Origin: a phage
Direction: 5' to 3' (one strand)
Sequence record: PZ789432.1
DNA: 44,996 nucleotides
A program made the translations under genes and the position numbers. This document shows, piece by piece, positions 3,437 through 42,652 of this stretch. Numbering within the stretch: the first letter of the stretch is position 1; the number at the start of each line of letters is the position of its first letter. The notes under the pieces were generated by a model. It was not told the origin of the DNA, did not search any database, and was given only the letters and a program-made list of their open reading frames with translations.

Positions 3437-6064
3437 ATGCAAGACCTACACGCTATTCAACTTCAACTTGAAGAAGAAATGTTTAACGGCGGTATCCGTC
3501 GCTTTGAAGCGGACCAACAACGCCAGATTGCATCCGGTAATGAATCAGACACGGCATGGAATCGCCGCTTATTGTCCGAGTTAATCGCGCCAATGGCTGA
3601 AGGTATTCAGGCTTATAAGGAAGAGTACGAAGGCAAGCGCGGTCGTGCACCACGTGCATTGGCTTTCATTAACTGCGTAGAAAATGAAGTGGCAGCGTAT
3701 ATCACGATGAAAATCGTAATGGATATGCTTAACACTGATGTAACCTTGCAGGCTATAGCCATGAATGTAGCTGACCGCATTGAGGACCAAGTACGTTTTA
3801 GCAAGCTGGAAGGTCACGCCGCCAAATACTTTGAGAAAGTTAAGAAGTCACTTAAGGCAAGTAAGACTAAATCATATCGCCATGCGCACAACGTAGCGGT
3901 CGTGGCTGAGAAGTCAGTAGCTGACCGTGACGCTGATTTCTCTCGCTGGGAGGCGTGGCCTAGAGATACCTTGCTACAAATTGGTATGACCTTGCTAGAA
4001 ATACTGGAAAATAGTGTATTCTTCAATGGTCAGCCTGTCTTTCTTCGCACCTTGCGCACTAATGGTGGCAAGCATGGCGTTTACTACTTACAGACTAGCG
4101 AACACGTGGGTGAATGGATAACTGCATTTAAAGAGCACGTAGCTCAGCTGAGTCCAGCCTATGCACCTTGCGTTATTCCTCCGCGTCCGTGGGTTTCTCC
4201 GTTTAATGGTGGCTTTCACACCGAGAAGGTGGCAAGTCGCATCCGTCTAGTAAAAGGTAACCGTGAGCACGTCCGTAAGCTGACTAAAAAGCAAATGCCA
4301 GCGGTTTACAAGGCTGTTAACGCCTTACAAGCTACTAAGTGGCAGGTTAACAAGGAAGTATTGCAGGTAGTAGAAGATGTTATTCGTCTAGACCTCGGTT
4401 ATGGTGTACCTTCCTTTAAGCCGCTCATTGACCGCGAGAACAAACCAGCTAACCCTGTTCCTCTTGAGTTCCAGCACCTGCGAGGCCGTGAACTTAAAGA
4501 GATGCTAACGCCGGAACAATGGCAAGCCTTTATAAACTGGAAAGGAGAATGTACCAAGCTGTATACCGCTGAAACTAAGCGCGGAAGCAAGTCGGCGGCG
4601 ACCGTTCGCATGGTTGGACAAGCCCGTAAATACAGCCAGTTTGACGCAATTTATTTTGTGTATGCACTGGACAGCCGTTCACGCGTTTATGCGCAATCTA
4701 GCACGCTCTCGCCGCAATCAAACGACTTAGGCAAGGCATTGCTCCGTTTTACCGAAGGGCAGCGTCTTGATAGCACTGAGGCGCTTAAGTGGTTTTTGGT
4801 GAACGGGGCGAATAACTGGGGTTGGGATAAGAAAACTTTTGACGTGCGCACCGCTAACGTGCTGGATAGCGAATTTCAAGACATGTGCCGCGACATTGCA
4901 GCGGATCCGCTGACCTTCACTCAATGGGTAAATGCTGATTCCCCTTATGGCTTCCTTGCATGGTGCTTTGAATATGCGCGTTATCTGGATGCACTGGACG
5001 AAGGAACGCAAGACCAATTCATGACGCACCTACCCGTCCATCAAGATGGTAGTTGCTCTGGTATCCAGCACTATAGCGCGATGTTACGAGATGAAGTAGG
5101 TGCGAAAGCAGTAAACCTTAAGCCTTCTGACTCCCCTCAAGATATTTATGGCGCGGTTGCGCAGGTTGTTATCCAGAAGAATTACGCCTACATGAATGCA
5201 GACGACGCAGTGACTTTCACATCCGGAAGCGTCACACTTACAGGTGCAGAACTGCGTAGCATGGCTAGTGCGTGGGATATGATAGGAATCACTCGCGGCC
5301 TGACCAAAAAGCCCGTAATGACACTACCTTATGGCAGCACACGTCTAACCTGCCGTGAGTCAGTGATTGATTATATCGTTGATTTAGAAGAAAAAGAGGC
5401 CCAACGAGCTATTGCGGAAGGGCGTACCGCCAATCCTGTACACCCTTTTGATAATGACCGTAAGGACAGCCTGACACCTAGCGCAGCTTATAACTATATG
5501 ACAGCTTTAATCTGGCCTTCTATTTCGGAAGTGGTTAAAGCTCCTATAGTGGCGATGAAAATGATTCGTCAGCTTGCCCGTTTCGCAGCTAAAAGGAATG
5601 AAGGCTTAGAGTATACCTTGCCTACTGGCTTCATCTTGCAACAAAAGATTATGGCTACTGATATGCTCCGCGTATCCACTTGCCTGATGGGAGAAATCAA
5701 GATGAGTCTCCAGATTGAAACGGACGTAGTGGATGAAACGGCTATGATGGGCGCTGCTGCTCCTAACTTTGTGCATGGTCATGATGCCAGTCACCTTATC
5801 TTAACGGTCTGCGACCTTGTTGATAAAGGGATTACATCTATCGCAGTAATTCATGATTCTTTTGGCACTCATGCAGGTCGCACCGCAGACCTACGTGATA
5901 GTCTAAGGGCAGAAATGGTGAAGATGTATCAAGGCCGTAACGCTCTGCAAAGCCTGTTAGATGAGCATGAAGAACGCTGGTTAGTAGACACCGGAATCCA
6001 AGTGCCAGAGCAAGGAGAGTTTGACCTTAACGAAATCTTAGTATCTGACTATTGCTTCGCATAA
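3437..6064 (+). CDS. single-subunit DNA-dependent RNA polymerase (SP6-type)
   Basis: 875 aa; N-terminus [32 protein letters not shown] and C-terminus ...[12 protein letters not shown]...[10 protein letters not shown] closely match SP6 RNAP as I remember it; T7-family motifs present ([39 protein letters not shown]). Confidence 0.97.
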
Positions 6065-6073
6065 TATTAATAG

Positions 6074-6104
6074 GCCATTCCTTAGGGAGTGGCCTTTTCT
6101 TTTA
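6074..6104 (+). terminator. intrinsic terminator after the RNAP gene
   Basis: Hairpin ggccattcc-ttag-ggagtggcc (9-bp stem, one G-U pair) followed by TTTTCTTTT. Confidence 0.6.
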
Positions 6105-6137
6105 CCTATTACCTGTAACATTTAATTAACATAACCG

Positions 6138-6153
6138 TGTCTCACACGTGAGA
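6138..6153. repeat. 16-bp palindrome GTCTCACACGTGAGAC
   Basis: 7-bp inverted arms GTCTCAC/GTGAGAC; lies just upstream of a phage promoter. Confidence 0.8.
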
Positions 6154-6156
6154 CTT

Positions 6157-6179
6157 ATTTACCGGACACTATAGGATAA
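6157..6179 (+). promoter_or_regulatory. phage RNAP promoter (atttaccggacactatagg)
   Basis: Matches the genome-wide consensus ATTTACYGGACACTATAG; predicted +1 G at 6174. Confidence 0.7.
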
Positions 6180-6320
6180 CCGTCGGAGACGGAAAGAAAG
6201 GGAAGATAAAGGATATAAAAGGAAGTAATAGGTATTAAAGGTTATATAGGTTTACCTAGGAATACCTATTACCTTCTTCCTTCCTCTTATTACTACTTAA
6301 AGGAAGGGCAGACCTAAGTT

Positions 6321-6336
6321 GTCTCACATGTGAGAC
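6321..6336. repeat. 16-bp perfect palindrome GTCTCACATGTGAGAC
   Basis: Same family as 6138..6153; just upstream of a second phage promoter. Confidence 0.8.
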
Positions 6337-6341
6337 TTCGT

Positions 6342-6364
6342 ATTTACCGGACAATATAGATAAG
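6342..6364 (+). promoter_or_regulatory. phage RNAP promoter variant (atttaccggacaatatagataag)
   Basis: One core mismatch (C to A); second of two tandem promoters upstream of the gene 1.1-like ORF, as phi1.1A/phi1.1B in T7. Confidence 0.55.
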
Positions 6365-6389
6365 ACTAACTTACTTTGGAGATTTAACC

Positions 6390-6518
6390 ATGCGTAACTT
6401 TGAGAAGATGACCCGTAAAGCTAACCGTTTTGACATGGAAGAAGGGCAGACGAAAGGCAAGAAGCTGAATAAGCCTGTCCGTGACCGTGCATCTAAACGC
6501 GCAGCATGGGAGTTCTGA
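6390..6518 (+). CDS. T7 gene 1.1-like small basic protein (42 aa)
   Basis: MRNFEKMTRKANRFDMEEGQTKGKKLNKPVRDRASKRAAWEF resembles T7 gp1.1 as I remember it; SD GGAG upstream; below ORF-track cutoff. Confidence 0.6.
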   Translation: MRNFEKMTRKANRFDMEEGQTKGKKLNKPVRDRASKRAAWEF

Positions 6519-6521
6519 GTT

Positions 6522-6740
6522 ATGGCTAAATACAGAATCAAGACCTGTTTAAATAGTCACGGGCAAGAATTCTACGTAGTGCAACGTAAAGTATTAGGCT
6601 TAATATGGCTCACTTGTATGATGCCTATTGGCTATACTGATACAGAGGCTATCTTCTGCACCGAAAGGGATGCAAAGAAGTTTATCTCTAAGCGTAGAAA
6701 AGCTGACTCTTACCAACCTAGAATTATTAAGGTGAACTAA
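6522..6740 (+). CDS. hypothetical protein (72 aa)
   Basis: ORF track; between gene 1.1-like and primase-helicase. Confidence 0.55.
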   Translation: MAKYRIKTCLNSHGQEFYVVQRKVLGLIWLTCMMPIGYTDTEAIFCTERDAKKFISKRRKADSYQPRIIKVN

Positions 6741-8728
6741 TGGCTATTATTAATAACATCCCGTGCCCTGCCTGTCAAAAGAATGGACATGATATTACTG
6801 GCAACCATCTTATGATATTTGAGGATGGCGCTGGTTACTGTAACCGTGGTCACTTCCATGATAATGGTAAGCCTTATTACCATAAGCCAGAGGGTGGTAT
6901 CGAGATAACCGAATTGCCTATTACTGGCAATATCAAATATACACCTTCTCAATTCAAAGAAATGGAGAAGGAAGGGAAGATAAGCGACCCTAAGCTACGC
7001 GCCATCGCACTTGGTGGTATGCGTATGAAAGATCGTTGGGAGGTCATGAATGAGCAAGAAAGGGCAGACCAAGAAGCAGAGTGGAAGCTTGATGTTGAAT
7101 GGTTCCTCACGCTTAAGCGTAAGAACCTTGTATCCCGTCACATTCGAGGTGACATCGCAGCAATGTACGATGTGCGCGTTGGACACGATGAAGAGGGAAG
7201 AGTCAACCGTCACTATTATCCACGATATGAAAAGGGTGTGCTTGTTGGAGCAAAATGCCGGACGTTGCCGAAGGATTTTAAGTTCGGACACCTAGGTAAA
7301 CTCTTTGGTATGCAAGACCTTTTCGGTATGAACACTTTGTCTCACGTGTTAGACAAGGGGAGACGAAAGGATTGCTTGCTTATTGTAGGCGGTGAACTTG
7401 ATGCACTAGCAGCGCAGCAGATGCTCCTTGATTCTGCCAAGGGTACTAAGTGGGAAGGCCAGCCATACCATGTATGGTCTGTCAACAAAGGCGAGTCTTG
7501 TCTTGAAGAGATAGTGCAAAACCGTGAGCATATCGCCCAATTCAAGAAGATTATATGGGGTTTTGATGGAGATGAGGTAGGGCAGAAGCAGAATCAGCAA
7601 GCGGCTCGCCTGTTTCCTGGCAAATCCTATATCCTTGAATACCCCTCTGGTTGCAAAGATGCTAACAAGGCATTGATGGCTGGCAAGGCTAAAGAGTTTG
7701 TAGATGCATGGTTTAATGCCAAGTCATCTGATGAAGTCTTTGGTAGCCAGATTAAATCTATCGCATCTCAAAGGGATAAGCTCAAGGCTGCACGTCCAGA
7801 GCAAGGACTATCATGGCCTTGGCCTAAGCTGAACAAGGTCACGCTAGGTATTCGTAAGAACCAACTTATCATTGTAGGCGCAGGCTCTGGTGTAGGTAAG
7901 ACTGAGTTCCTTCGTGAAGTAGTTAAGCACCTCATTGAAGAACACGGTGAATCTGTAGGCATCATTTCTACAGAAGACCCGATGGTCAAGGTGTCCCGTG
8001 CTTTTATCGGCAAGTGGATTGATAAGCGCATTGAGTTACCGCCAACCAACGACCCGAAAGAAGATGGATACCGTGAGGTGTTCGACTACACCGAGGAAGA
8101 GGCTAACGCCGCCATTGATTATGTAGCTGATACAGGTAAGCTGTTTGTAGCTGACCTAGAGGGTGACTATTCGATGGAAAAGGTAGAGCAAACTTGCCTA
8201 GAGTTTGAGGCTATGGGCATTTCTAATATCATCATTGATAACTTAACGGGGATTAAATTAGATGAGCGTGCTTTTGGTGGGAAGGTTGGTGCACTTGATG
8301 AATGCGTCAAGCGGATTGGTACTATCAAAGACCGACACCCGGTTACTATATTCCTTGTATCACACCTTACACGTCCTCCGGCAAACCGTACCCAACACGA
8401 AGAAGGTGGCGAGGTTATCCTTTCTGACTTCCGAGGCTCAGGCGCTATCGGATTCTGGGCATCTTACGCCTTGGGGATTGAGCGTAATACAAGAGCTGAA
8501 ACGCTTGACGAAAGGACTACCACGTACATCTCATGTGTCAAAGACCGCGACCAAGGAATATTTTCCGGTACTCGTATAATGCTTAAAGGTGATATTGCTA
8601 CTGGTCGATTACGTGAACCAGAGCAAAGATCTCGACCGTTTGATACTGGTGCTCCAAAAGAACAAACTGTACCAGAAGAAGTAGTGGATAAAGGAGGATT
8701 TATTGCTGACGAAGTTGAAGAGTTTTGA
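6740..8728 (+). CDS. DNA primase/helicase (T7 gp4-like)
   Basis: 662 aa; N-terminal zinc ribbon CPACQ...CNRGH; Walker A VGAGSGVGKTEF; acidic C-terminus ending EEF. Confidence 0.93.
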   Translation: MAIINNIPCPACQKNGHDITGNHLMIFEDGAGYCNRGHFHDNGKPYYHKPEGGIEITELPITGNIKYTPSQFKEMEKEGKISDPKLRAIALGGMRMKDRWEVMNEQERADQEAEWKLDVEWFLTLKRKNLVSRHIRGDIAAMYDVRVGHDEEGRVNRHYYPRYEKGVLVGAKCRTLPKDFKFGHLGKLFGMQDLFGMNTLSHVLDKGRRKDCLLIVGGELDALAAQQMLLDSAKGTKWEGQPYHVWSVNKGESCLEEIVQNREHIAQFKKIIWGFDGDEVGQKQNQQAARLFPGKSYILEYPSGCKDANKALMAGKAKEFVDAWFNAKSSDEVFGSQIKSIASQRDKLKAARPEQGLSWPWPKLNKVTLGIRKNQLIIVGAGSGVGKTEFLREVVKHLIEEHGESVGIISTEDPMVKVSRAFIGKWIDKRIELPPTNDPKEDGYREVFDYTEEEANAAIDYVADTGKLFVADLEGDYSMEKVEQTCLEFEAMGISNIIIDNLTGIKLDERAFGGKVGALDECVKRIGTIKDRHPVTIFLVSHLTRPPANRTQHEEGGEVILSDFRGSGAIGFWASYALGIERNTRAETLDERTTTYISCVKDRDQGIFSGTRIMLKGDIATGRLREPEQRSRPFDTGAPKEQTVPEEVVDKGGFIADEVEEF

Positions 8729-9191
8729 GGCAGCAGGATATACCATCAAGGAGGATGGTACTATCCTTAACCCTAAAGGTGTAATACTTAAACCGAGCCA
8801 ATCAGGAAGGAAATTAAAGTATTTATATGTAAGTTGGAGACATCAAGGAAGAAGAGTAACAGAGCTTGTACACAGATTGGTTGCTAAGAAGTACATACCC
8901 AACCCACACAGTTTACCAGAAATTCATCATAAAGACTTTAACCCTCTTAATTGTCATAAAGACAATCTTGAATGGACAGATGGTAAGACTAATTGTGAGT
9001 ATAGTTATGCAAGGGTAGAAGCTGCACTTGCACGTCATGCTACTTTATTGTCACCTGATGGCATTAAGTACGACATATTTAATGTTCGTAAATTCTGCCG
9101 CGAACATGGCCTCAATCCACCTAGTGTATTTGAGGTGCTTAGTGGTAAACGGAAGTCACATAAAGGGTGGACTATTTACCGGACACTATAG
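8703..9191 (+). CDS. HNH homing endonuclease
   Basis: 162 aa; EIHHKDFNPLNCHKDNLEW HNH motif. No in-frame ATG; starts at TTG 8703 six nt after AAGGAGG, inside the last 26 nt of the helicase gene. Confidence 0.8.
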   Translation: MLTKLKSFEAAGYTIKEDGTILNPKGVILKPSQSGRKLKYLYVSWRHQGRRVTELVHRLVAKKYIPNPHSLPEIHHKDFNPLNCHKDNLEWTDGKTNCEYSYARVEAALARHATLLSPDGIKYDIFNVRKFCREHGLNPPSVFEVLSGKRKSHKGWTIYRTL

Positions 9192-9196
9192 AAGAG
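9174..9196 (+). promoter_or_regulatory. phage RNAP promoter (atttaccggacactatagaagag)
   Basis: Consensus match; +1 G at 9191; overlaps the HNH stop codon. Confidence 0.75.
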
Positions 9197-9225
9197 ACAA
9201 CCTTTGACGATGAACAGGAGTTTTA

Positions 9226-9387
9226 ATGGAAATTATTAAACCAGTATTGAATATCGGTATTGAGATCCTATTCATGCTTGTGATCGCAGATTATGCTGCA
9301 CGATATGGATTCAAGAAAGCTGTGAAACTTATCGTTGCATCTGGTTTTCTTATGTCAATGTTCTTTATTGTAACACGCCTTATCTAG
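9226..9387 (+). CDS. hypothetical small membrane protein (53 aa)
   Basis: ATG 9226 with SD CAGGAG; hydrophobic throughout. Confidence 0.4.
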   Translation: MEIIKPVLNIGIEILFMLVIADYAARYGFKKAVKLIVASGFLMSMFFIVTRLI

Positions 9388-9404
9388 TGTATTTATCAGG
9401 GCTT

Positions 9405-9420
9405 GTCTCACATGTGAGAC
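9405..9420. repeat. 16-bp perfect palindrome GTCTCACATGTGAGAC in a terminator-like context
   Basis: Flanks extend the pairing (gcttgtctcaca/tgtgagacaggc), followed by tcttatt. Confidence 0.8.
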
Positions 9421-9459
9421 AGGCTCTTATTAAGTACATTAAATAACTGGAGATTGATT

Positions 9460-10143
9460 ATGTATAAATTAGTATTGAATGTAGGTGATTATGTTCGTAA
9501 CATCAATGAAGCCTCACGTCGTTATCGTTGCCGTGGTGTAGTGGCTCGTGTAAGTGAGAACATGTATCATGTAGAATATGATGATGGTATTAAGGCTTCT
9601 TATCACAAGAAAACCGCACATAAATATCTTGAAAAGGTTGTAGAGGTAAACAATCAATGTAAGTGCATACATGATGAGGTTTGCGATAAATGTGCTCGCC
9701 AGATGCTTAAGAATTTCCTAGCCCCTCTTTATTATGGTGCTGGTCCTCAAACACTAGCAGAGTACATGGCAGAAAAGAAAACCACACTCAAGAAAGAGCG
9801 TCGCAATGTAATCACTGGTAAGACTCAAAGTGAGATGATTAAGCAATGTGGCACTGCATTAGGTGTTACACAGTTCAATACTCGTGCATTGGGTAAATCC
9901 ACAGGGCAAGCTATGGTGAAAATTGGTGAAGCTATGATGCAACCAAATGTACCTGTGCGAATCGTGGATATTGACCATGCAATCACAGAGCATGGTACAC
10001 CACGCCGTGTAGCTAACAATCATTTTGCCGACACTATAGAAGACATTATTCGTAAGCAAGGGTTGAAGGGTCTTCACATCTTAAATGGTGAAGAATTACT
10101 GTACCTACCTATCGTTACTGAAGAAACCTACGTGAATATCTAA
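9460..10143 (+). CDS. hypothetical protein (227 aa)
   Basis: ORF track 9454..10143 (TTG); first ATG at 9460 with SD GGAG; contains a Cys cluster CKCIHDEVCDKC. Confidence 0.7.
   Translation: MYKLVLNVGDYVRNINEASRRYRCRGVVARVSENMYHVEYDDGIKASYHKKTAHKYLEKVVEVNNQCKCIHDEVCDKCARQMLKNFLAPLYYGAGPQTLAEYMAEKKTTLKKERRNVITGKTQSEMIKQCGTALGVTQFNTRALGKSTGQAMVKIGEAMMQPNVPVRIVDIDHAITEHGTPRRVANNHFADTIEDIIRKQGLKGLHILNGEELLYLPIVTEETYVNI
10022..10044 (+). promoter_or_regulatory. phage RNAP promoter located inside a CDS (ttttgccgacactatagaagac)
   Basis: Core GACACTATAGAAGA identical to the consensus; lies within 9460..10143. Confidence 0.5.
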
Positions 10144-10595: not shown

Positions 10596-10703
10596 ATGCC
10601 ACGTGATTATGATTCTGATTGGGACTATTATGACTCAATGAATCCAAAACCCGAACGTTCAGATGATTACTACGAAACAGAGGCAATGTATGAAGACTAT
10701 TAA
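10596..10703 (+). CDS. hypothetical small acidic protein (35 aa)
   Basis: ATG 10596 six nt after GGAGG; MPRDYDSDWDYYDSMNPKPERSDDYYETEAMYEDY. Confidence 0.3.
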   Translation: MPRDYDSDWDYYDSMNPKPERSDDYYETEAMYEDY

Positions 10704-10908
10704 ATTAAGCAAGGTTTGCTCTTGCGGTAAAGGCTATCGCAGTCGTATTGATGGTAAGTGTGGACATTGTAGGTCTAAGAAAGAGGCTGCTTTGTTTTAC
10801 AAATACCACAATGAACTCTCCTATAACTACCCTCATCTAACACCTAATTCTTTATTAGGACTTGGTTATAGGGCTAAATACTTTGGAGCAATCTATGAAA
10901 TCAATTGA
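10690..10908 (+). CDS. hypothetical zinc-ribbon protein (72 aa)
   Basis: ORF track 10663..10908; ATG 10690 preferred (GAGG 6 nt upstream); CSCGKG...CGHC motif. Confidence 0.5.
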   Translation: MKTIKLSKVCSCGKGYRSRIDGKCGHCRSKKEAALFYKYHNELSYNYPHLTPNSLLGLGYRAKYFGAIYEIN

Positions 10909-11380
10909 TTGGAAGAAGGAAGCGGAAGGGCGCATCCTAGTTATGGACGCCGAGGCGAAAGGTCTACTTGATGCTATACGCTATGGTCATCGTGAAGACG
11001 TGCATATCATCTGCTGTATGGACCTGTTGACTACAGAGGAGTTTCTCTTCTTCGACCCGTATGAGATGCGTGACCCTGAAGCAAGAGAACGCCTGAAGGA
11101 ATGGGAAGGTCATCAAGATGGTGACTTGGTTGATGGTGTTAACTTCCTGAAGCATTGTGAAGCTATTGTGTCACAGAACTTCCTAGGGTATGACGGACTT
11201 CTCTTTGAGAAAGCATTCCCTGATATTTGGAAGGGCTTTAACTATACCGAGAAGCGCGGTAAGGGCAGACTCCGTGCTGACCTGTGTCCGGTGCGAGTCA
11301 TGGATACGCTGGTGATGAGTCGCCTGTTAAACCCAGATAAGACGCCTTCCTCCGCAAGCATATGCCAAAGGTATGGGTAA
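10895..11380 (+). CDS. DNA polymerase (Pol I family), fragment 1 of 4: 3'-5' exonuclease domain; frame-disrupted
   Basis: ORF track 10862..11380 (TTG), first ATG 10895; Exo motifs ILVMDAEAKGL and NFLGYDGLLFEKAF; VMDTLVMSRLL parallels T7 gp5 CIDTLVLSRLI. Homology continues in another frame. Confidence 0.85.
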   Translation: MKSIDWKKEAEGRILVMDAEAKGLLDAIRYGHREDVHIICCMDLLTTEEFLFFDPYEMRDPEARERLKEWEGHQDGDLVDGVNFLKHCEAIVSQNFLGYDGLLFEKAFPDIWKGFNYTEKRGKGRLRADLCPVRVMDTLVMSRLLNPDKTPSSASICQRYG

Positions 11381-11786
11381 CGTCGCCCCTCACTCAATTG
11401 AGGCGCACGGCATCCGTATAGGCCGCTATAAACCGGAGAACGAGGACTGGTCTAAACTAACTGACCACATGGTTCACCGTGTACGTGAGGACGTGGCGAT
11501 TGGTCGTGACTTGTTCCTCTGGCTCTTTAACGGGGAATGGATGGAGCATAAACGCCGTGGCGTGAATAAACGCACGGGCCTAGGCATTGAGACAGCCTTC
11601 CACATGGAGTCCATTGTGGCGCTGGAGATGAGCCGTCAGGCCGAGCGGGGGTTCCGTCTGGACATCGACAAGGCTTTGGCCCGATGCGAAGAATTGGACG
11701 CTAAGATTGATGAGACAGTCGCAGCGTTCCGCCCTCACATGCCTATGCGTATCAAGTCTAAACCTTTTAAACCGGAAGAAAAGTAA
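11373..11786 (+). CDS. DNA polymerase, fragment 2 of 4; frame-disrupted
   Basis: HSIEAHGIRIGRYK parallels T7 gp5 HALEAWGYRLGEMK; the frame is open upstream from 11331, so the shift lies near 11335..11372. Confidence 0.8.
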   Translation: MGNVAPHSIEAHGIRIGRYKPENEDWSKLTDHMVHRVREDVAIGRDLFLWLFNGEWMEHKRRGVNKRTGLGIETAFHMESIVALEMSRQAERGFRLDIDKALARCEELDAKIDETVAAFRPHMPMRIKSKPFKPEEK

Positions 11787-12445
11787 TGAAGTATGCCAAC
11801 GCGCAAATGAGTATGGAGCTAGCAACAATATACCTACTGTCCTTGACCCCTCACACTTTCTTCATGCCGAGAGACGAGGAGATCGCAAGACAGTATGGAG
11901 AGCTTGTCACTACTAAGTCTGGTGATTGGTCGGCTAGTGTTAAGAAAGACTTTCCTCACCTTAGAGGAAACCGTAATGACACGCCAAGCATCAAGTGGAT
12001 TGGCGCTTACTCGCCTGTTACTTTCGAAGAGATTCCCTTGGGTAACAGGGATACAGTTAAGCAAGTGCTCTATGATTATGGATGGAAAGGTGTTGAATTT
12101 AACGATACCGAGCAAGCGCATCTCGATGAGTACGGAGTGTTACCCAAACCTTGGAGTGGTAAGATAAATGAAAAGTCCCTCACTTTATGGCAAGAAAGAG
12201 CCGCACGTGAAGGTAAAACAGTACCTGATTGGTGCTTGGGTATCGCTGCATGGTACATACTCGTATCCCGTCGTGGTCAGATACTCAACCGTGGTGACGT
12301 TGAAGCCTTCAACGAGAAGGGGAACGTGGCCCTCGCAGGCTGGTGTACGAAAGTGTCGCGGCCTTGTACCTGTAGCATTCAACAAGGAGCTAGGAATCAA
12401 TGCGCAGCAATACTACGAGAGGTACGGATGTTGGCCTACGTCTGA
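11786..12445 (+). CDS. DNA polymerase, fragment 3 of 4; frame-disrupted
   Basis: Back in the frame of fragment 1; polymerase-like over its N-terminal two thirds. Confidence 0.7.
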   Translation: MKYANAQMSMELATIYLLSLTPHTFFMPRDEEIARQYGELVTTKSGDWSASVKKDFPHLRGNRNDTPSIKWIGAYSPVTFEEIPLGNRDTVKQVLYDYGWKGVEFNDTEQAHLDEYGVLPKPWSGKINEKSLTLWQERAAREGKTVPDWCLGIAAWYILVSRRGQILNRGDVEAFNEKGNVALAGWCTKVSRPCTCSIQQGARNQCAAILREVRMLAYV

Positions 12446-13448
12446 CAAAGATGACGGAGAGTGGCGTGTTCCAGCTGTTGCTATTAGTATTGGCACTTCT
12501 ACGTTCCGTATGCGTCATCGTAACGTGGTTAATATTCCTGCCCGTGGCTTGTATCCTTTACGTGATTTATTCATAGCAGGGAAAGGCAAGCTAATCCTTG
12601 GTTGTGACGGTGCAGGTCTTGAACTGCGTGTCCTGTCTCACTTCATGAATGACCCTGAGTACCAAGAGATTGTACTGCACGGTGATATTCATACGCATAA
12701 CCAGATGAAGGCTGGTCTTCCTAAGCGTGATATGGCGAAGACGTTTATATACGCCTTCCTCTATGGTTCTGGTATAGCCAACCTTGCAGCAGTCTGCGGT
12801 GTTACTGAGGAAGAAATGAAGGAAGTTGTGGCAAGATTCGAGATTGAACTACCGTCTCTTGCACGTCTTCGTGAGAATGTTATCGCACAAGGTAACAAGT
12901 TTGGCTACCTGCAAGCACCTGATGGGCATTGGGGTCGCATCCGCATGTCTGGTGGTGAACTTAAAGAGCACACGATGCTTAACGTATTACTCCAGATGAC
13001 TGGCTCTTTGTGTATGAAATATGCATTAGTCAAGGCATTTGCAGTAATGCGCAAGGAAGGTGTAGCTTTGGATGCTATGGGAAATCCTTGTGGTGTGGCT
13101 AACGTGCATGATGAAATCCAGATGGAAGTTCCTGAAGAGGAGGTCTTGTATCTTAACTACGACCTACCTTTCACCTTAGATGGGTTCGAAACAGAGAAGG
13201 CTGCTGTGAAAGCAGTTTTCGATGCAGAGGAGAAACGTGTTCATGTGGATTCTGAAGGACGTATGTGGTCTGCTGCAAACCTCGTTAGCGTTGATGCTGA
13301 TGCTGGTGTATTGCATTGCCAGCGCCGTTATCACCGTGCAGGTCATATCATTGCCGACGCCATGACTTGGGCAGGGCAGTATCTGAAGATGCGTTGCCCG
13401 ATGGCAGGAGAATATAAGATTGGCGCAAGCTGGAAGGAAACACACTGA
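12168..13448 (+). CDS. DNA polymerase, fragment 4 of 4: palm/fingers; frame-disrupted
   Basis: Motif A GCDGAGLELRVLSHF, TSTFRMRHRNVVNIP (T7 TGRATHAFPNLAQIP), KTFIYAFLYG, VHDEIQ. Reliable homology starts near 12430; the first ~260 nt of this ORF overlap fragment 3. Confidence 0.85.
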   Translation: MKSPSLYGKKEPHVKVKQYLIGAWVSLHGTYSYPVVVRYSTVVTLKPSTRRGTWPSQAGVRKCRGLVPVAFNKELGINAQQYYERYGCWPTSDKDDGEWRVPAVAISIGTSTFRMRHRNVVNIPARGLYPLRDLFIAGKGKLILGCDGAGLELRVLSHFMNDPEYQEIVLHGDIHTHNQMKAGLPKRDMAKTFIYAFLYGSGIANLAAVCGVTEEEMKEVVARFEIELPSLARLRENVIAQGNKFGYLQAPDGHWGRIRMSGGELKEHTMLNVLLQMTGSLCMKYALVKAFAVMRKEGVALDAMGNPCGVANVHDEIQMEVPEEEVLYLNYDLPFTLDGFETEKAAVKAVFDAEEKRVHVDSEGRMWSAANLVSVDADAGVLHCQRRYHRAGHIIADAMTWAGQYLKMRCPMAGEYKIGASWKETH

Positions 13449-13564
13449 TGGATAGGCTTGACATTATTTGCCTATTCTTCACTCTCTTTCTTACACTCCT
13501 TATGCTTGCTTGTTATGGGAGTATGAGACTAGATATACCTGATGAAGAAGAGGGTTACGACTAA
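13448..13564 (+). CDS. hypothetical small membrane protein (38 aa)
   Basis: ATG overlaps the polymerase stop (TGATG); hydrophobic core. Confidence 0.35.
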   Translation: MDRLDIICLFFTLFLTLLMLACYGSMRLDIPDEEEGYD

Positions 13565-13662
13565 TGCAAACTGCTTTTATTATTCTTGGTATCATATTAT
13601 TTATGGTAGTACTCTGGGCCTTCTCTGGCATTGACCCGGATTGTGATGGTAACTACGACTGA
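13564..13662 (+). CDS. hypothetical small membrane protein (32 aa)
   Basis: ATG overlaps the previous stop (TAATG); hydrophobic. Confidence 0.3.
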   Translation: MQTAFIILGIILFMVVLWAFSGIDPDCDGNYD

Positions 13663-23999: not shown

Positions 24000-24003
24000 T
24001 CAG

Positions 24004-24027
24004 TATTTACTGGACACTATAGAAGGG
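24004..24027 (+). promoter_or_regulatory. phage RNAP promoter for the capsid gene (tatttactggacactatagaaggg)
   Basis: Exact consensus; +1 G at 24022; transcript starts with hairpin gggagaaaatgtctccc. Confidence 0.8.
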
Positions 24028-24076
24028 AGAAAATGTCTCCCTAAATTATCAATTTGATTTATAAGGAGGTTTATTA

Positions 24077-25282
24077 ATGAGCACCCCGAATAACCTGACC
24101 AACGTTGCAGTCTCCGCTTCCGGCGAGGTAGACAGCCTTCTCATTGAGAAATTCAATGGCAAGGTAAATGAGCAGTACCTGAAAGGTGAGAACATCATGT
24201 CCTACTTTGATGTTCAGACTGTTACTGGTACTAACACTGTAAGCAACAAATATTTGGGTGAAACCGAGTTGCAGGTTCTGGCACCGGGCCAGTCTCCGGC
24301 TGCAACCTCTACTCAGGCCGATAAAAACCAACTGGTAATTGACGCCACTGTTATTGCTCGTAACACTGTGGCTCACCTGCATGACGTACAGGGTGATATT
24401 GATAGCCTGAAGCCGAAGCTTGCTACTAACCAAGCGAAGCAGCTGAAGAAGATGGAAGATGAAATGCTGATTCAGCAGATGCTGCTGGGCGGTATTGCTA
24501 ACACTCAGGCTAAGCGTACTAATCCGCGTGTTAAAGGACATGGCTTCTCTGTCAACGTAGAAGTTGCAGAAAGTGAAGCACTGGTCAACCCGCAGTATGT
24601 AATGGCGGCTGTAGAGTTTGCTCTGGAGCAGCAGCTTGAGCAGGAAGTAGACATCTCTGATGTAGCTATCCTGATGCCGTGGCGCTACTTCAACGTACTG
24701 CGTGATGCAGACCGTATCGTTGACAAGAGCTACACCATTAGCCAGTCTGGTGCAACCATTCAGGGTTTTGTTCTGTCTTCTTACAACTGCCCTGTTATCC
24801 CGTCTAACCGCTTCCCTAAATTCTCTGCTGGTCAGAAACATCACCTGCTGTCAAATGAAGACAACGGTTATCGTTATGACCCGACTGCAGAAATGAATGG
24901 CGCTATCGCTGTACTGTTCACTGCTGATGCGTTGCTGGTTGGTCGTTCTATTGATGTTACTGGCGATATCTTCTATGAGAAGAAAGAGAAGACCTACTAC
25001 ATTGATACTTTCATGTCTGAAGGTGCAATCCCTGATCATTGGGAAGCAGTGTCTGTTGTGACAACTAAGCGTAACTCATCTACTGGTGAGGCTGAGGGTA
25101 CTGATGGAGCACAGCACACTCAAGTTCTTAACCGTGCACAGCGCAAAGCTGTATACGTCAAGAATGCTGCTCCGGCAGGTGCTGCCGCTGCTGCTAGTCT
25201 GTCTGCTGAAGACTTAGTTGCTGCTGTCCGTGCTGTCATGGCAAATGACATTAAGCCGACTGCAATGAAACCTGCTGAGTAA
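24077..25282 (+). CDS. major capsid protein
   Basis: 401 aa; strong SD AAGGAGG; framed by promoter and terminator like T7 gene 10. Confidence 0.85.
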   Translation: MSTPNNLTNVAVSASGEVDSLLIEKFNGKVNEQYLKGENIMSYFDVQTVTGTNTVSNKYLGETELQVLAPGQSPAATSTQADKNQLVIDATVIARNTVAHLHDVQGDIDSLKPKLATNQAKQLKKMEDEMLIQQMLLGGIANTQAKRTNPRVKGHGFSVNVEVAESEALVNPQYVMAAVEFALEQQLEQEVDISDVAILMPWRYFNVLRDADRIVDKSYTISQSGATIQGFVLSSYNCPVIPSNRFPKFSAGQKHHLLSNEDNGYRYDPTAEMNGAIAVLFTADALLVGRSIDVTGDIFYEKKEKTYYIDTFMSEGAIPDHWEAVSVVTTKRNSSTGEAEGTDGAQHTQVLNRAQRKAVYVKNAAPAGAAAAASLSAEDLVAAVRAVMANDIKPTAMKPAE

Positions 25283-25290
25283 TACCTATG

Positions 25291-25323
25291 CCCTATCTAC
25301 CTTGCGTAGGTAGGGTTCTTTTT
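25291..25323 (+). terminator. hairpin + U-run terminator after the capsid gene (T-phi analog)
   Basis: ccctatctac-cttgc-gtaggtaggg followed by TTCTTTTT. Confidence 0.65.
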
Positions 25324-25336
25324 GTTAGGAGGATTC

Positions 25337-26074
25337 ATGCCTGTAATTAAACAAACCAGTAAAGTAGGACACATGATGGAAGATGTGGCCTTCCAGATTA
25401 TTGATAGCAAGCTTGAAGCGGTCAACTTGTGTATGCGAGCTATTGGTCGTGAGGGTGTGGATTCTCTCGACTCAGGCGATCTTGATGCAGAAGATGCAAG
25501 TAAGATGATTGATATTGTATCCCAGCGCTTCCAGTATAACAAAGGCGGTGGCTGGTGGTTCAATCGTGAACCTAACTGGCAGCTTGCACCAGACACGAAC
25601 GGTGAGATTAACTTGCCTAATAACTGCCTAGCTGTATTGCAGTGCTACGCATTGGGTGAGAAGAAAGTGCCTATGACTATGCGTGCAGGTAAGCTTTACT
25701 CCACATGGAGTCACACCTTTGATATGCGCAAGCATGTTAATGCTAATGGCATGATTCGTCTTACCTTACTCACCTTACTACCCTACGAGCATCTACCTAC
25801 AAGTGTAATGCAGGCTATTGCCTATCAAGCTGCTGTAGAGTTTATTGTGTCTAAGGATGCAGATCAGACTAAGCTAGCCACTGCGCAGCAGATAGCCACT
25901 CAGCTTCTTATGGATGTACAATCTGAGCAAATGTCACAGAAGCGATTAAACATGCTGGTACATAACCCCACTCAGCGTCAGTTTGGTATCATGGCTGGTG
26001 GCTCTCAGAATGTACCTGCTTACTCTCATTCACCTTATGAAAGTTGGGCGCTCCGTCCGTGGGAGGATCGTTAA
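25337..26074 (+). CDS. tail tubular protein A (T7 gp11-like)
   Basis: ORF track 25322..26074; ATG 25337 after AGGAGGA; position and size. Confidence 0.75.
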   Translation: MPVIKQTSKVGHMMEDVAFQIIDSKLEAVNLCMRAIGREGVDSLDSGDLDAEDASKMIDIVSQRFQYNKGGGWWFNREPNWQLAPDTNGEINLPNNCLAVLQCYALGEKKVPMTMRAGKLYSTWSHTFDMRKHVNANGMIRLTLLTLLPYEHLPTSVMQAIAYQAAVEFIVSKDADQTKLATAQQIATQLLMDVQSEQMSQKRLNMLVHNPTQRQFGIMAGGSQNVPAYSHSPYESWALRPWEDR

Positions 26075-32210: not shown

Positions 32211-35200
32211 ATGGAACAAGATATTAAGACTAATTGGGCTGGATATGTCCAGTCTACTCCTGAGCCGTTTTCTATTGAGGCGGCTCCGGTATCGGCTCCT
32301 ACGATACGCCAGCGTAATGAGTTACAAGAGCAAGTTCTTGAAGCTAAAGCGGATGCTGATATCTTAGGTGCTGTAGGTGCTGCCTTCCAGAATGAGTGGT
32401 TGGCATTCGGAGGCAAGCGGTGGTATGACCGTGCCACTGCTGATTTCACACCTCAACCAGACTTCGAGATACAACCTGAGCAACGTGAAGCACTACGTTT
32501 CAAATATGGTACAGATATGATGCAGACAATCACTGAGGGTGTTCGTTCTGAGGATGAATTGAACTTCCGTATTCAGAATGCTGATGAAGACCTTGAGCGC
32601 AATAAGCGCATTGCTCAGGCTGGCTGGGTTGGCTCTGTGGCGACGATTGGCGCTGCTGTGCTTGACCCTGTGGGATGGGTTGCCTCTATTCCAACCGGTG
32701 GTGCCGCTAAAGTTGGACTCGTAGGCCGTGCTGTGCGTGGCGCTATCGCCGCTGGCGTAAGTAATGCCGCTATTGAATCCATATTGGTCCAAGGTGACAT
32801 GACTCGTGATTTAGATGACATTATGGTAGCACTAGGCTCCGGTATGGCTATGGGTGGCGTTATTGGAGCTGTAGCGCGTGGTAGGGCCACTAAGCTCAGT
32901 GAGCAAGGAGATGACAGGGCTGCGAGCATTGTGCGCAGTGCAGACGCAGGGGACCGCTATGTGCGTGCTGTTGCTGATGATAGTATCGGTGCGATGCGTG
33001 TTAAGGGTGAAGAGGTACTCACTGAGGGTGCATTTGATATCTCTAGCAAAGGTGAAGATTTGCTGAAAACCCTACAGCGGGAAGGTAATGCAATTGATAT
33101 GACCCCTCGCCGCTGGGCCGGAACTCTGTCTGCCCTTGGGACTGTCGTGCACTCCTCTCATGATACTAGTGTTCGTGGCCTCGGTGCTCGCCTGTTTGAG
33201 TCTCCGCAAGGTTTAGGTATGCAAAAGGCATCTGCCAGTCTTATGCAGAATACCAACTTGAATCGACTGAAGTCTGCTGATATGAACCGTTTCAATGACG
33301 GGTTTGACTTATGGCTCAAAGAAAATAATATCAATCCAGTTGCAGGCCATACTAACTCTCACTATGTGCAGCAATATAATGAGAAGGTATGGGAAGCTGT
33401 ACGCATCGGTATGGATGAGTCTACGCCTAAGTCTATCCGCATGGCAGCAGAGGGGCAGCAAGCTATGTACCGTGAAGCCTTAGCTTTAAGGAAGCGCTCC
33501 GGTGAAGCTGGCTTTGAAAACATTAAAGCAGATAATAAGTATATGCCTGATATCTTTGACACTATGAAAGCTCGCCGTCAATTTGATAGGATAGGAAAGG
33601 ATATAGATAAAGAAGATATCATTGAGTTATTCTCTCGTGCTTATCAGAACGGCGCTCGTAAAATTCCAAAAGAAGTAGCGGATGAAATTGCACGAGCACA
33701 AGTAAACCGCGTTGCTGGATGCCACCTTGACCGGACAGCTATGAGCTTTGAAAAGGCTATGTCTGGTCAAACCAAAGCAGAATATGAAGCACTAATGCGC
33801 AAAGCAGGCTTTAGTGATGAAGAGATTGAAAAGATGGTAGAAGCTCTGGATAATAAAGAAACCAGAGATAATATCTCTAACCGAGCTAAGATGAGTTTAG
33901 GCTTAGATGTCACTCAAGAGTACAATGGCATTCGTATGCGTGACTTTATGAACACTAACGTGGAAGAGTTAACAGATAACTACATGAAGGAAGCGGCAGG
34001 TGGTGCTGCCTTGGCTCGTCAAGGTTTCTCTACCTATCAGGCTGCACTTAATGCAATTGATCTTGTAGAGCGAAATGCACGAAATGCAGCTAAAGATACA
34101 AAAGCACACGCACAATTTGAAGCGGAGTCGGCTAAGATCCGTCAATCAGAGCCTGATTACAAGAGGGCACAAGAGAAGATTGAAGAGTTAAAGAAGCGAC
34201 TTAAATTGAAAGAGAAAGATGAAGCAGCTGGTCTGGCTATTGATGAAGAAATCCGTCAGATGCGAGAAGGGCTTCGCTTGATTATGGGTAAATCTATCGA
34301 TTCAAACCCACAAGATTTGTCTACTAAAATGCTGCGTCGTGGGCGTGACATTACAGGTGTACTTCGCTTAGGTCAGATGGGCTTCGCACAGCTAGGTGAA
34401 CTTGCTAACTTCATGGGTGAGTTTGGTATTGCTGCCACCACTATGGCTTTAGGTAAGCAATTCCGCTTCACCTCTAAGGCGTTGCGTAATGGCGATGGCT
34501 TCTTTCGAGATAAGAATTTAGCTGAGGTTGAGCGAATGGTAGGTTACATTGGTGAAGACAACTGGCTAACAACTAAGGGTGCGCGTCCAGATGAGTTTGG
34601 TGATGTAACCACAGTGCGAGGGATGATGGCCCATTTTGACCAGTCCATGAACTCTATACGACGTGCTCAGACAAACCTATCCCTCTTCCGCATGGCACAG
34701 GGTTCTCTGGAGCGAATGACCAATAGGCAAATAGCTTTGTCTTTCATTGACCATCTTGAAGGCAAGAAGATTATTCCTCAGAAGAAACTGGAGGAACTTG
34801 GTCTTACTCAGGAGTTCATGACTAACCTACAGAAGCACTATGATGCTAACTCTAAAGGCTCTGGCTTGCTTGGCTTTGATACAATGCCTTATGCCATGGG
34901 TGAAACTTTAGCTAATGCTATTCGTCGTAAGTCAGGTCTAATTATCCAACGTAACTTCATTGGTGATGAAGGTATCTGGATGAACAAAGCACTAGGTAAG
35001 ACATTTGCACAGCTTAAGTCATTCTCTCTTGTATCTGGTGAGAAGCAATTTGGTCGAGGGATTCGCCACGATAAAATTGGTCTTGCTAAGAAGACAGCTT
35101 ATGGTTTTGCTTTGGGTTCAATAGTGTATGCGGCAAAAGCCTATGTGAACTCTATTGGTCGAGAAGACCAAGATGAATATTTGGAAGAGAAGTTATCGCC

Positions 35201-35534
35201 TAAAGGGTTGGCCTTTGGTGCAATGGGTATGATGAGTACAACTGCTGTATTTAGTCTAGGTGGAGATTTCTTAGGTGGCCTAGGTGTTCTACCTTCTGAG
35301 TTAGTACAATCCCGTTATGAGGCTGGCTTTCAGACTAAGGGTTTGATAGACCAAATACCACTAGTAGGTGTTGGTCAAGATGCATATCGTTTAGCAGATT
35401 CTATAACTAAATACGCAGAGGGCGATACAGAAGGTGTAGATGTGGCACGTAGGGCTTTACGCTTAGTGCCTCTAGCTAATGTAATAGGAATCCAGAACGC
35501 ATTGCGTTATGGCTTAGATGAACTGGAGGATTAA
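32211..35534 (+). CDS. large internal virion (core) protein, T7 gp16-like by position
   Basis: 1107 aa; SD GGAGG; last of three internal proteins between tail tube and tail adaptor genes. Confidence 0.75.
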   Translation: MEQDIKTNWAGYVQSTPEPFSIEAAPVSAPTIRQRNELQEQVLEAKADADILGAVGAAFQNEWLAFGGKRWYDRATADFTPQPDFEIQPEQREALRFKYGTDMMQTITEGVRSEDELNFRIQNADEDLERNKRIAQAGWVGSVATIGAAVLDPVGWVASIPTGGAAKVGLVGRAVRGAIAAGVSNAAIESILVQGDMTRDLDDIMVALGSGMAMGGVIGAVARGRATKLSEQGDDRAASIVRSADAGDRYVRAVADDSIGAMRVKGEEVLTEGAFDISSKGEDLLKTLQREGNAIDMTPRRWAGTLSALGTVVHSSHDTSVRGLGARLFESPQGLGMQKASASLMQNTNLNRLKSADMNRFNDGFDLWLKENNINPVAGHTNSHYVQQYNEKVWEAVRIGMDESTPKSIRMAAEGQQAMYREALALRKRSGEAGFENIKADNKYMPDIFDTMKARRQFDRIGKDIDKEDIIELFSRAYQNGARKIPKEVADEIARAQVNRVAGCHLDRTAMSFEKAMSGQTKAEYEALMRKAGFSDEEIEKMVEALDNKETRDNISNRAKMSLGLDVTQEYNGIRMRDFMNTNVEELTDNYMKEAAGGAALARQGFSTYQAALNAIDLVERNARNAAKDTKAHAQFEAESAKIRQSEPDYKRAQEKIEELKKRLKLKEKDEAAGLAIDEEIRQMREGLRLIMGKSIDSNPQDLSTKMLRRGRDITGVLRLGQMGFAQLGELANFMGEFGIAATTMALGKQFRFTSKALRNGDGFFRDKNLAEVERMVGYIGEDNWLTTKGARPDEFGDVTTVRGMMAHFDQSMNSIRRAQTNLSLFRMAQGSLERMTNRQIALSFIDHLEGKKIIPQKKLEELGLTQEFMTNLQKHYDANSKGSGLLGFDTMPYAMGETLANAIRRKSGLIIQRNFIGDEGIWMNKALGKTFAQLKSFSLVSGEKQFGRGIRHDKIGLAKKTAYGFALGSIVYAAKAYVNSIGREDQDEYLEEKLSPKGLAFGAMGMMSTTAVFSLGGDFLGGLGVLPSELVQSRYEAGFQTKGLIDQIPLVGVGQDAYRLADSITKYAEGDTEGVDVARRALRLVPLANVIGIQNALRYGLDELED

Positions 35535-39628: not shown

Positions 39629-39985
39629 TGCTTAACAAATACTTCAAGCGCCGTGAGTTCGCTTGCCGTTGTGGGTGCGGTACATCCACTGTTGATGCTG
39701 AATTACTACAGGTAGTCACAGATGTGCGTGAGCACTTTGGTTCGTACCTGTAGTAATCACTTCGGGGCATCGCTGTGCTAAGCACAATGCCAACGTAGGA
39801 GGAGCTAAGAAGGTTCCATGCATCTTACTGGTAAGGCTGCTGACATTAAGGTATCTAGGTGTCTGGTACCAATCGGAGGTACGTACAGTACCTCTGCTAA
39901 TAAATACCCTGATAAGTATGGCATTGGTGCTTATACCTACTTTTACCCATATCGACGTTACGAGACAACGAGTGCACGATGGTAA
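39628..39985 (+). pseudogene. endolysin, zinc peptidase M15-type, with about four frame disruptions in this sequence
   Basis: Successive frames give MLNKYFKRREFACRCGCG...VREHFGS / PVVITSGHRCAKHNANVGGAKK / SMHLTGKAADIKV...GIGAYTY / FTHIDV / ...SARW*, together the M15 hallmark. Each break is at a short G or T run. Confidence 0.75.
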
Positions 39986-40094
39986 GATGTGTTGAATGGT
40001 GTGAACGCATGGTTGCCAAAGCATCCAGAGGATGGCAACTATGATGACTGGAAGAACTACTCTGAATTGTTAGCTCAATGGAAAGGGAGATGCA

Positions 40095-40190
40095 ATGAAA
40101 AAGCTGTTTAAGTCTAAGAAGGTTGTAGGTGCACTGGTTGCACTGGTTATTGCACTTGTTTCTGTAGGTCTTGGCGTAGACCTTGGCTGA
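40095..40190 (+). CDS. hypothetical small membrane protein (31 aa)
   Basis: ATG 40095 after AAGGGAG; MKKLFKSKKVVGALVALVIALVSVGLGVDLG. Confidence 0.35.
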   Translation: MKKLFKSKKVVGALVALVIALVSVGLGVDLG

Positions 40191-40324
40191 AGGTACGGAA
40201 GGTTCCTGTCACTGACGTGGTCTGCCAAGTGATCACCTGTGAATAAGGTGCTTGAAGTGGTGGCAGGTCTTATTGGCCTGCTGCTTGCCGCTAAGAAGAA
40301 GCAAGGAAGAAAAGGAGGCACAAA

Positions 40325-40426
40325 GTGAAGCGAATCATGCTAGCGACAATCCTGCTGATTGGTTCGCTGACCACTTCCGGGTGTCAGACAGGCGTTACCA
40401 GAGAGTCCAATGGTGAAACCGTCTGA
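40325..40426 (+). CDS. small lipoprotein-like ORF (candidate o-spanin-like)
   Basis: GTG 40325 six nt after AGGAGG (or ATG 40337); MLATILLIGSLTTSGCQTG has a signal peptide with lipobox-like TSGC. No intact i-spanin ORF is visible. Confidence 0.35.
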   Translation: MKRIMLATILLIGSLTTSGCQTGVTRESNGETV

Positions 40427-40667: not shown

Positions 40668-41792
40668 ATGGCTAAATTAACCAAACCTAAGACTGAAGGA
40701 ATCTTGCATAAAGGACAATCTTTGTATGAGTACCTTGATGCGAGAGTTTTAACATCAAAGCCGTTTGGTGCTGCAGGTGACGCCACTACTGATGATACGG
40801 AGGTTATAGCTGCTTCACTAAACTCTCAAAAAGCTGTCACAGTCTCAGATGGTGTATTCTCTAGCTCTGGTATTAATAGTAATTACTGTAACTTAGACGG
40901 CAGGGGTAGTGGAGTACTAAGTCACCGTTCAAGTACAGGTAACTACTTAGTATTTAACAATCTACGTGCAGGTCGCTTAAGTAATATTACGGTAGAAAGT
41001 AATAAGGCGACTGATACAACTCGGGGACAGCAGGTATCTCTTGCTGGTGGAAGTGATGTTACTGTAAGTGACGTTAACTTCTCAAACGTTAAAGGTACTG
41101 GTTTCAGTTTAATAGCATACCCTAATGGTGCGCCACCTAATGGGCTTATGATTAAAGGTATTCGAGGTAGCTACTCCGGCTATGCTACTAATAAGGCAGC
41201 CGGATGCGTACTTGCTGACTCCTCAGTTAACTCCCTAATAGATAACGTCATTGCTAAGAACTACCCTCAGTTCGGAGCCGTAGAGTTGAAAGGTACAGCC
41301 AGTTATAACATAGTCAGTAATGTTATAGGGACAGATTGCCAGCATGTAACTTACAACGGCACTGAAGGGCCAATAGCTCCTTCTAATAACCTTATCAAGG
41401 GTGTGATGGCTAATAACCCTAAGTATGCAGCGGTTGTTGCAGGCAAAGGAAGTACGAACTTAATCTCAGACGTGCTCGTAGATTACTCAACTTCTGATGC
41501 TAGGCAGGCTCATGGTGTTACCGTAGAGGGGTCTGATACCGTCATAAATAATGTGCTTATGTCAGGATGTGATGGTACTAACTCTTTAGGACAAAGTCAG
41601 ACTGCTACAATTGCGCGCTTTATAGGTACAGCTAATAACAACTATGCGTCTGTATTTCCTAGCTACAGTGCTACAGGTGTTATTACTTTCGAATCCGGCT
41701 CTACCCGTAACTTCGTAGAGGTAAAGCACCCTGGCAGGAGAAATGACCTTCTCAGTTCTGCTAGTACTATTGACAGGTGCAGCTACTATTGA
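40668..41792 (+). CDS. tailspike 1 (beta-helix polysaccharide depolymerase, K5-lyase-like), N-terminal fragment; frame-disrupted
   Basis: ORF track 40608..41792 (TTG); ATG 40668 after AGGAG; beta-helix-like repeats; frame lost near 41775. Confidence 0.8.
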   Translation: MAKLTKPKTEGILHKGQSLYEYLDARVLTSKPFGAAGDATTDDTEVIAASLNSQKAVTVSDGVFSSSGINSNYCNLDGRGSGVLSHRSSTGNYLVFNNLRAGRLSNITVESNKATDTTRGQQVSLAGGSDVTVSDVNFSNVKGTGFSLIAYPNGAPPNGLMIKGIRGSYSGYATNKAAGCVLADSSVNSLIDNVIAKNYPQFGAVELKGTASYNIVSNVIGTDCQHVTYNGTEGPIAPSNNLIKGVMANNPKYAAVVAGKGSTNLISDVLVDYSTSDARQAHGVTVEGSDTVINNVLMSGCDGTNSLGQSQTATIARFIGTANNNYASVFPSYSATGVITFESGSTRNFVEVKHPGRRNDLLSSASTIDRCSYY

Positions 41793-42567: not shown

Positions 42568-42573
42568 GCAACA

Positions 42574-42596
42574 GGCAGTGCGTAAGCACTGCTTTT
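42574..42596 (+). terminator. hairpin + U-run terminator after tailspike 1
   Basis: ggcagtgc-gtaa-gcactgc followed by TTTT. Confidence 0.55.
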
Positions 42597-42652
42597 CACG
42601 CAACTTTTCTTAAAGGTTATCATGGTGGTAGCCTTTCAGAAAAGGAGGTTAC

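Follow-up and report, generated by a model that had tools for sequence, protein, structure and literature searches.

Private extra bases, most probably errors of the record, divide the gene for DNA polymerase in a Vectrevirus genome

Why should a phage's DNA polymerase gene, at 10895..13448 of sequence record PZ789432.1, read as four separate open reading frames (ORFs)? The window, by which we mean the whole stretch of 44,996 nucleotides (nt) that was analysed, is a podophage genome of the K1E/K1-5/SP6-like kind (Autographiviridae, Molineuxvirinae, Vectrevirus), complete and linear. Its genes stand in the same order as those of Escherichia phages 6948, EEc4, LI10P3 and K1E, and the nearest records in the phage collection are 96-98% identical to it, none being more than 99% identical. 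The original prediction held that three frame changes had split the gene, and that sequencing errors of the homopolymer type lay behind them. We put the probability at about 0.92 that the breaks are insertion errors of the record, made in sequencing, assembly or editing, and that they are not phage biology. Four such errors, amounting to seven bases, would have cut one real ORF of 2547 nt into five frame segments.

The first line of evidence is the length and layout of the gene. In the relatives, the polymerase is encoded by a single ORF of 2547 nt and 848 codons; the window gene is colinear with it and is 2554 nt long, and in a nucleotide alignment the 7 extra bases fall into four events. When the 6948 DNA polymerase was compared with the window by tblastn, residues 1-848 were covered as five colinear pieces, in frames 2, 3, 1, 2 and 3, and there are therefore four frame changes (Table 1). 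The ATG at 10895 lines up with the annotated polymerase start of phages 6948 and K1E, and residues 1-149 of the 6948 protein match segment 1 on 10895-11341 with 98.7% identity. Similarly, residues 294-334 match segment 3 on 11776-11898 in frame 1, and this segment has zero differences from 6948 once corrected. The four ORFs and the 278-nt overlap of the last two (12168..12445) exist just as they had been listed, but they are not the fragments that hold the homology: there are five segments, the reading frame of segment 3 lies in none of the four ORFs, and the first 39 codons of ORF3 are out of frame. Likewise, the three zones in which frame changes had been proposed are real (A at 11339/11340, T at 11784 and G at 12319-12322), whereas a fourth change, AGCT at 11901-11904, had been missed.

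At each of the four sites, the difference between the window and its relatives can be read directly. At 11339 the window has GATAAGAC where relatives have GAT-AGAC (GATAGAC), and at 11784 it has AAAAGTAATG against AAAAGAATG, with AAAAG-AATG in 12 close relatives. The third site, at 11901-11904, reads GGAGAGCTTGTC in the window against GGAGTGTC, with GGAG----TGTC in the 11 closest relatives, and the fourth, at 12319, reads GAAGGGGAAC against GAAGGGAAC, with a gap in relatives (e.g. GAA-GGGAAC). When 18 relatives of 72% to 98% identity were aligned with the window, each of the four insertions was a gap in 18 of 18, and the insertions are thus private to the record. Furthermore, the count of gap positions against the window is exactly 7 in each relative of at least 91% identity whose alignment covers every one of the four sites. 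Exact-match scans of contig collections covered two of the insertions, those at 11784 and 11901-11904. A 24-mer containing the extra T had no exact match in viral contigs, and a 23-mer containing AGCT had none in viral, metagenome or genome contig collections. As a control, the uninserted 19-mer of the AGCT site was recovered from 18 contigs (9 viral and 9 metagenomic), and the scans therefore work. The filling-in of a restriction site was considered as a source of the AGCT and rejected, there being no suitable site in the uninserted GGAGTGTC.

Table 1. Polymerase segments, ORFs, extra bases and other broken genes, in positions of the window.
Feature	Position	Strand	Description
Segment 1	10895..11338	+	Frame 2, codons 1-148; N-terminal part of putative 3'-5' exonuclease domain
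Segment 2	11340..11783	+	Frame 3, codons 149-296; 6948 residues 149-296, 100% identity (tblastn)
Segment 3	11785..11900	+	116 nt, frame 1, about codons 297-335 (~39 codons)
Segment 4	11905..12318	+	Frame 2, about codons 336-473; 6948 residues 336-474, 98.6% identity (tblastn)
Segment 5	12320..13448	+	Frame 3, codons 474-848 and stop; 6948 residues 473-848, 99.7% identity (tblastn)
Mechanical ORFs 1-4	10862/10895..11380; 11373..11786; 11786..12445; 12168..13448	+	From the program-made ORF list
Out-of-frame leader of ORF3	11786..11900	+	First 39 codons, not in the polymerase frame
Extra A	11339	+	Either A of AA 11339-11340; shifts the frame, stop 39 nt on at 11378-11380
Extra T	11784	+	No adjoining T; makes the TAA stop (11784-11786) of ORF2, overlapping ATG 11786
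Extra AGCT	11901-11904	+	4-nt insertion; fourth frame change
Extra G	12319	+	Any G of GGGG 12319-12322
5'-3' exonuclease break	~17004		Single private extra base
Scaffold protein break	~23711		Single private extra base
Tail-fibre adaptor break	~35644		Single private extra base
Tailspike break	~41775		Single private extra base; gene has C-terminal Peptidase_S74 chaperone domain
Lysis region	39742-40421		Peptidase_M15 endolysin (start 39628) and small downstream lysis genes, scrambled by dense insertions

As given, the gene is in five segments, and a single uninterrupted reading frame appears only once the 7 private bases are deleted; the result is one open ORF of 848 codons, the same length as in the relatives. 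The corrected gene differs from that of 6948 at 42 positions, 37 of them at codon position 3, and of these differences 4 are non-synonymous, the other 38 being synonymous. In the comparison with K1E, position 3 holds 169 of 196 differences, and this bias is found in every segment past the first break. The position-3 bias and the scarcity of non-synonymous changes argue that the restored frame has been under purifying selection up to the present, with no decay. The corrected protein matches DNA_pol_A (PF00476) over residues 533-749 with 82 bits (cut-off 34.3), ORF4 alone scoring 85 bits, and T7 DNA polymerase (1skr) is its best match among solved structures (E=1.3e-30). Thus the claim that homology to the Pol I family runs unbroken through 10895-13448 is borne out, both by this domain match and by the coverage of all 848 residues of the 6948 protein. 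All three catalytic motifs are present, DGAGLELR for A (pattern D..LE.R), RDMAKTFIYAFLYG for B (pattern R...K...F...YG) and VHDE for C (pattern HDE), and all lie inside segment 5 together with the whole of the DNA_pol_A match. By these comparisons, the underlying gene is a standard Vectrevirus, T7-gp5-like family A replicative polymerase, with a predicted N-terminal 3'-5' exonuclease and C-terminal palm and fingers. A separate observation concerns its 5' end: about 17 of the 22 private substitutions of the polymerase gene lie in its first 230 nt (10924-11123), and the differences from 6948 there are nearly all synonymous, which suggests that this end is mosaic or recombinant and not a product of error.

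The out-of-frame leader of ORF3 has a history of its own. Its ATG and first 38 residues are shared with an alternative-frame ORF of 125 codons in 6948, EEc4 and K1E, and the K1E record annotates both gp13.1 (11985-12362), in the alternative frame, and gp13.2 (12363-12569) within the polymerase gene. K1E-like phages keep the gp13.1 frame open over 125 codons, whereas in the SP6-like relatives L016 and L017 the ORF has no ATG and closes after 3 codons. As it is open in the one group and closed in the other, gp13.1 is probably not a gene, and its annotation is probably spurious. In the window, the AGCT insertion joins the leader in the gp13.1 frame to the polymerase frame, and the product is the chimeric ORF3.

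The polymerase insertions are not isolated. Counting as private those insertions and deletions (indels) that are seen against all four of 6948, EEc4, LI10P3 and K1E, we found 25 in the window, of which 24 are insertions and 1 is a deletion (binomial P=1.5e-6); no length is a multiple of 3. When each of the other genomes was taken as the focal genome, the ratios of insertions to deletions were 7:5 for 6948, 6:7 for EEc4, 2:1 for LI10P3 and 20:25 for K1E, and many of these control indels either fall outside annotated genes or form adjoining insertion and deletion pairs whose effects cancel. The window insertions are also clustered: 12 of them fall in 610 nt (39812-40421; P<5e-5), and 4 of the other 12 lie inside 981 nt of the polymerase gene (P=0.017). 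The earlier claim that further essential genes carry frame breaks also held, for the exonuclease, scaffold, adaptor, tailspike and endolysin/lysis genes (Table 1), and 39742-40421 is the worst-quality stretch of the record. With six or more essential genes broken, the polymerase included, a lytic phage could not be propagated, and the record, if read literally, is therefore that of a non-viable genome. The terminal direct repeat points the same way in a small degree. Positions 1-251 are repeated at 44742-44992 (251 nt) with one mismatch, the right copy being followed by 4 extra bases, and as the two copies in packaged DNA should be identical, the mismatch is a further small sign of an imperfect consensus.

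What type of error would this be? Among the 22 single-base insertions, 14 have no adjoining identical base, 6 make a run of 2, 1 makes a run of 3 and 1 a run of 4, a distribution that matches the 56%, 28%, 12% and 3% expected for runs of 1 to 4 from random insertion. The genome's runs of at least 4 bases (n=232) are otherwise untouched, and only one of the four polymerase events lengthens a run of at least 3. Homopolymer-length error, of the 454, Ion Torrent or nanopore type, is not supported by these random run lengths. Thus, one half of the explanation offered in the original prediction stands, namely an error of the record, on the grounds that the insertions are private, that they repair cleanly and that other genes are hit, and the homopolymer half does not. 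An insertion-only and clustered signature points instead to low-quality or mis-merged stretches of consensus. Two of the other events are suggestive in this respect. In the ORF of an internal virion protein (32211..35534), insertions of +1 and +2 at 33715 and 33737, 22 nt apart, give a net +3 that leaves the ORF open with 7 codons scrambled, and 33715-33740 reads as overlapped haplotypes of the 6948 and EEc4 types. At 35644, a known A/G polymorphism is written in tandem as GA. Both suggest that, for some events, the consensus was built from mis-merged reads or mixed templates. The writing of both alleles in tandem fits 33715/33737 and 35644, and perhaps 39742. At the four polymerase sites it fails, and for that reason we do not offer it as a general mechanism.

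Taken together, the lesions are private to the record, their removal restores a conserved ORF, and they share a systematic signature that runs through the whole record. We therefore favour a reading in which the polymerase errors would be part of a genome-wide set of 24 errors of the insertion type. Apart from single ones elsewhere in the genome, these would be gathered in two stretches of poor quality: 11.3-12.3 kb, in the polymerase gene, and 39.7-40.4 kb, in the lysis region. Their source may have been a consensus of low coverage or low quality, or mis-merged reads or haplotypes, biased towards insertions and without an excess of substitutions. Some points weigh against this. No excess of private substitutions accompanies the clusters of insertions, whereas classic low-quality base-calling tends to give substitutions and insertions together. 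Furthermore, although the insertions themselves are plain to see, their origin in the making of the record and not in the phage DNA is something that we infer from sequence comparison. Finally, corruption after sequencing, by editing or simulation, is indistinguishable from an error of sequencing or assembly.

The rival that survives best is that the insertions are real and very recent mutations in a defective genome (a non-viable molecule, or a clone or amplicon with polymerase errors), so that the gene would be a fresh pseudogene. The insertions do stand in the sequence as given, and the lack of any decay of the gene is compatible with very recent events. However, at least six indispensable genes would have been struck together, and the 24:1 bias towards insertion, in a non-repeat context, is unlike the spontaneous indels of replication slippage. 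In addition, the viable majority is what one would expect to see in a consensus genome that has terminal repeats. We consider this explanation improbable, roughly a one-in-twenty matter.

Programmed recoding, in which either transcriptional slippage or +1 ribosomal frameshifting would act at every one of the four sites to give a full-length polymerase, is far less probable still. The 80 nt 3' of the first site fold somewhat better than shuffled sequences (z=-2.3; 6 of 200 shuffles), but the folds 3' of sites 2-4 are unremarkable (z=+1.9, -1.4 and +0.7, respectively). A TTTAAAC heptamer at 11766 lies 18 nt upstream of the second site; it is the only heptamer of the XXXYYYZ form, it is of the wrong phase and direction, and it is also present in close relatives with an intact polymerase ORF. 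Known +1 signals are lacking at all four sites, where no homopolymer exceeds 4 nt; four independent events would be needed, one of them a skip of 4 nt, and the frameshifts are found in 0 of 18 relatives. No tRNA genes were found in the genome, and a suppressor tRNA was likewise rejected.

Equally hard to credit is an active polymerase assembled from four subunits that are made separately. ATG codons are available at 11373, 11786 and 12168, and the overlap of stop and start in TAATG (11784-11788) looks like translational coupling. Against this, the subunits would lack residues 149-159, would have 39 out-of-frame residues in place of 297-335, and would be burdened with 13, 42 and 50 further out-of-frame residues as tails and leaders. 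The first break, moreover, falls within the stretch aligned to T7 polymerase residues 87-167, which we take to be the exonuclease domain. A polymerase of this make-up would need to have arisen after the last synonymous change, and it is absent from all relatives. Indeed, any viable phage that truly had the seven extra bases would need either four recoding events (three of +1 and one 4-nt bypass) or the non-covalent assembly of four to five fragments, and we regard this as having perhaps one chance in a hundred. If it were true, the exonuclease, scaffold, adaptor, tailspike and endolysin, whose genes are broken too, would need the same.

Interruption by a mobile element (a group I intron, an intein or a homing endonuclease gene) can be dismissed as next to impossible and in effect already refuted, since, although the polymerase of one relative does carry an insert of about 720 nt, the window gene is colinear with intact ones and merely 7 nt longer. 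Searches against Rfam returned nothing at E<=1 for 10700-13600, and across the whole window nothing reached the gathering score. The earlier view that introns, inteins and programmed frameshifting are unsupported was accordingly sound, given an excess of only 7 nt, no Rfam match and no usable slippery site.

Two features outside the polymerase gene may be recorded here. Private substitutions are raised at 24001-26000 (major capsid and tail tubular A) and at 41001-43000 (tailspike), and the capsid protein of the window is just 86% identical to its 6948 counterpart; natural mosaicism likely lies behind this excess. Downstream of the primase/helicase, an ORF of 162 residues (8703-9191) has weak HNH_3 and I-HmuI NUMOD-like matches, below cut-off. 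As 8725-9460 is unmatched by phage 6948 proteins in tblastn, this ORF appears to be absent from 6948, and it is probably a free-standing homing endonuclease.

The biological weight of these results is small, as the enzyme is an ordinary Vectrevirus family A polymerase. Their importance is for curation. If the record were taken at face value, four spurious polymerase fragments would be drawn from it, including a chimera with an out-of-frame ORF, and its exonuclease, scaffold, adaptor, tailspike and endolysin genes would come out broken; all of this would contaminate both protein databases and pangenome counts. From the corrected coordinates, a clean protein of 848 residues can be recovered. Furthermore, the insertion-only, non-homopolymer and clustered signature is a useful diagnostic, with which consensus artefacts can be told from the real splits by endonuclease inserts that occur in this clade.

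How, then, does the locus compare with known systems? Programmed frameshifting, as in E. coli dnaX and T7 gene 10A/10B, uses conserved sites with defined slippery sequences, and it does so once per gene. The likeness to the window is that a single gene makes use of more than one reading frame; the difference is that the window has four unconserved sites without signals. The polymerases of other Vectrevirus phages (6948, URY99266.1; K1E gp13, CAJ29417.1) lie at the same genome position, with 98% and 92% nucleotide identity, respectively, and differ from the window copy in being without its +1, +1, +4 and +1 nt. T7 gp5 (PDB 1skr/1t7p) shares the three catalytic motifs (DGAGLELR in the window and DASGLELR in T7, RDMAKTFIYAFLYG and RDNAKTFIYGFLYG, and VHDE in both), and the N-terminal exonuclease region of the window protein aligns with it, weakly. 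It differs in length, with 704 residues against 848 in the window, and outside the palm and fingers the similarity is marginal.

Genuinely split polymerases do occur among relatives, and they make the most instructive contrast. A homology search with the ORF4 protein, in which the best match was 85% and the near-identical 848-residue relatives were not returned, exposed some that are naturally split. In one metagenome contig (L095; ENA ERZ14207102 NODE_12, 44,971 nt), the polymerase at 4001-7163 is divided into parts of 615 and 198 residues, and the insert of about 720 nt between them holds a 145-residue Endonuclease_7 ORF; a group I intron match at 6143-6445 is weak (23.6 bits, under the gathering score of 50). 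Further database matches of 615-638 and about 300-310 residues suggest that the split arrangement recurs. Group I introns have been documented in the polymerase genes of T7-like phages, for example Pf-WMP3 (PMC3428280). As in the window, the polymerase is annotated as several ORFs in Pf-WMP3 and L095. However, those two genes are parted by an element of several hundred nt, with its own endonuclease ORF, in a conserved polymerase domain, whereas the window has only 1-4 extra bases at each site.

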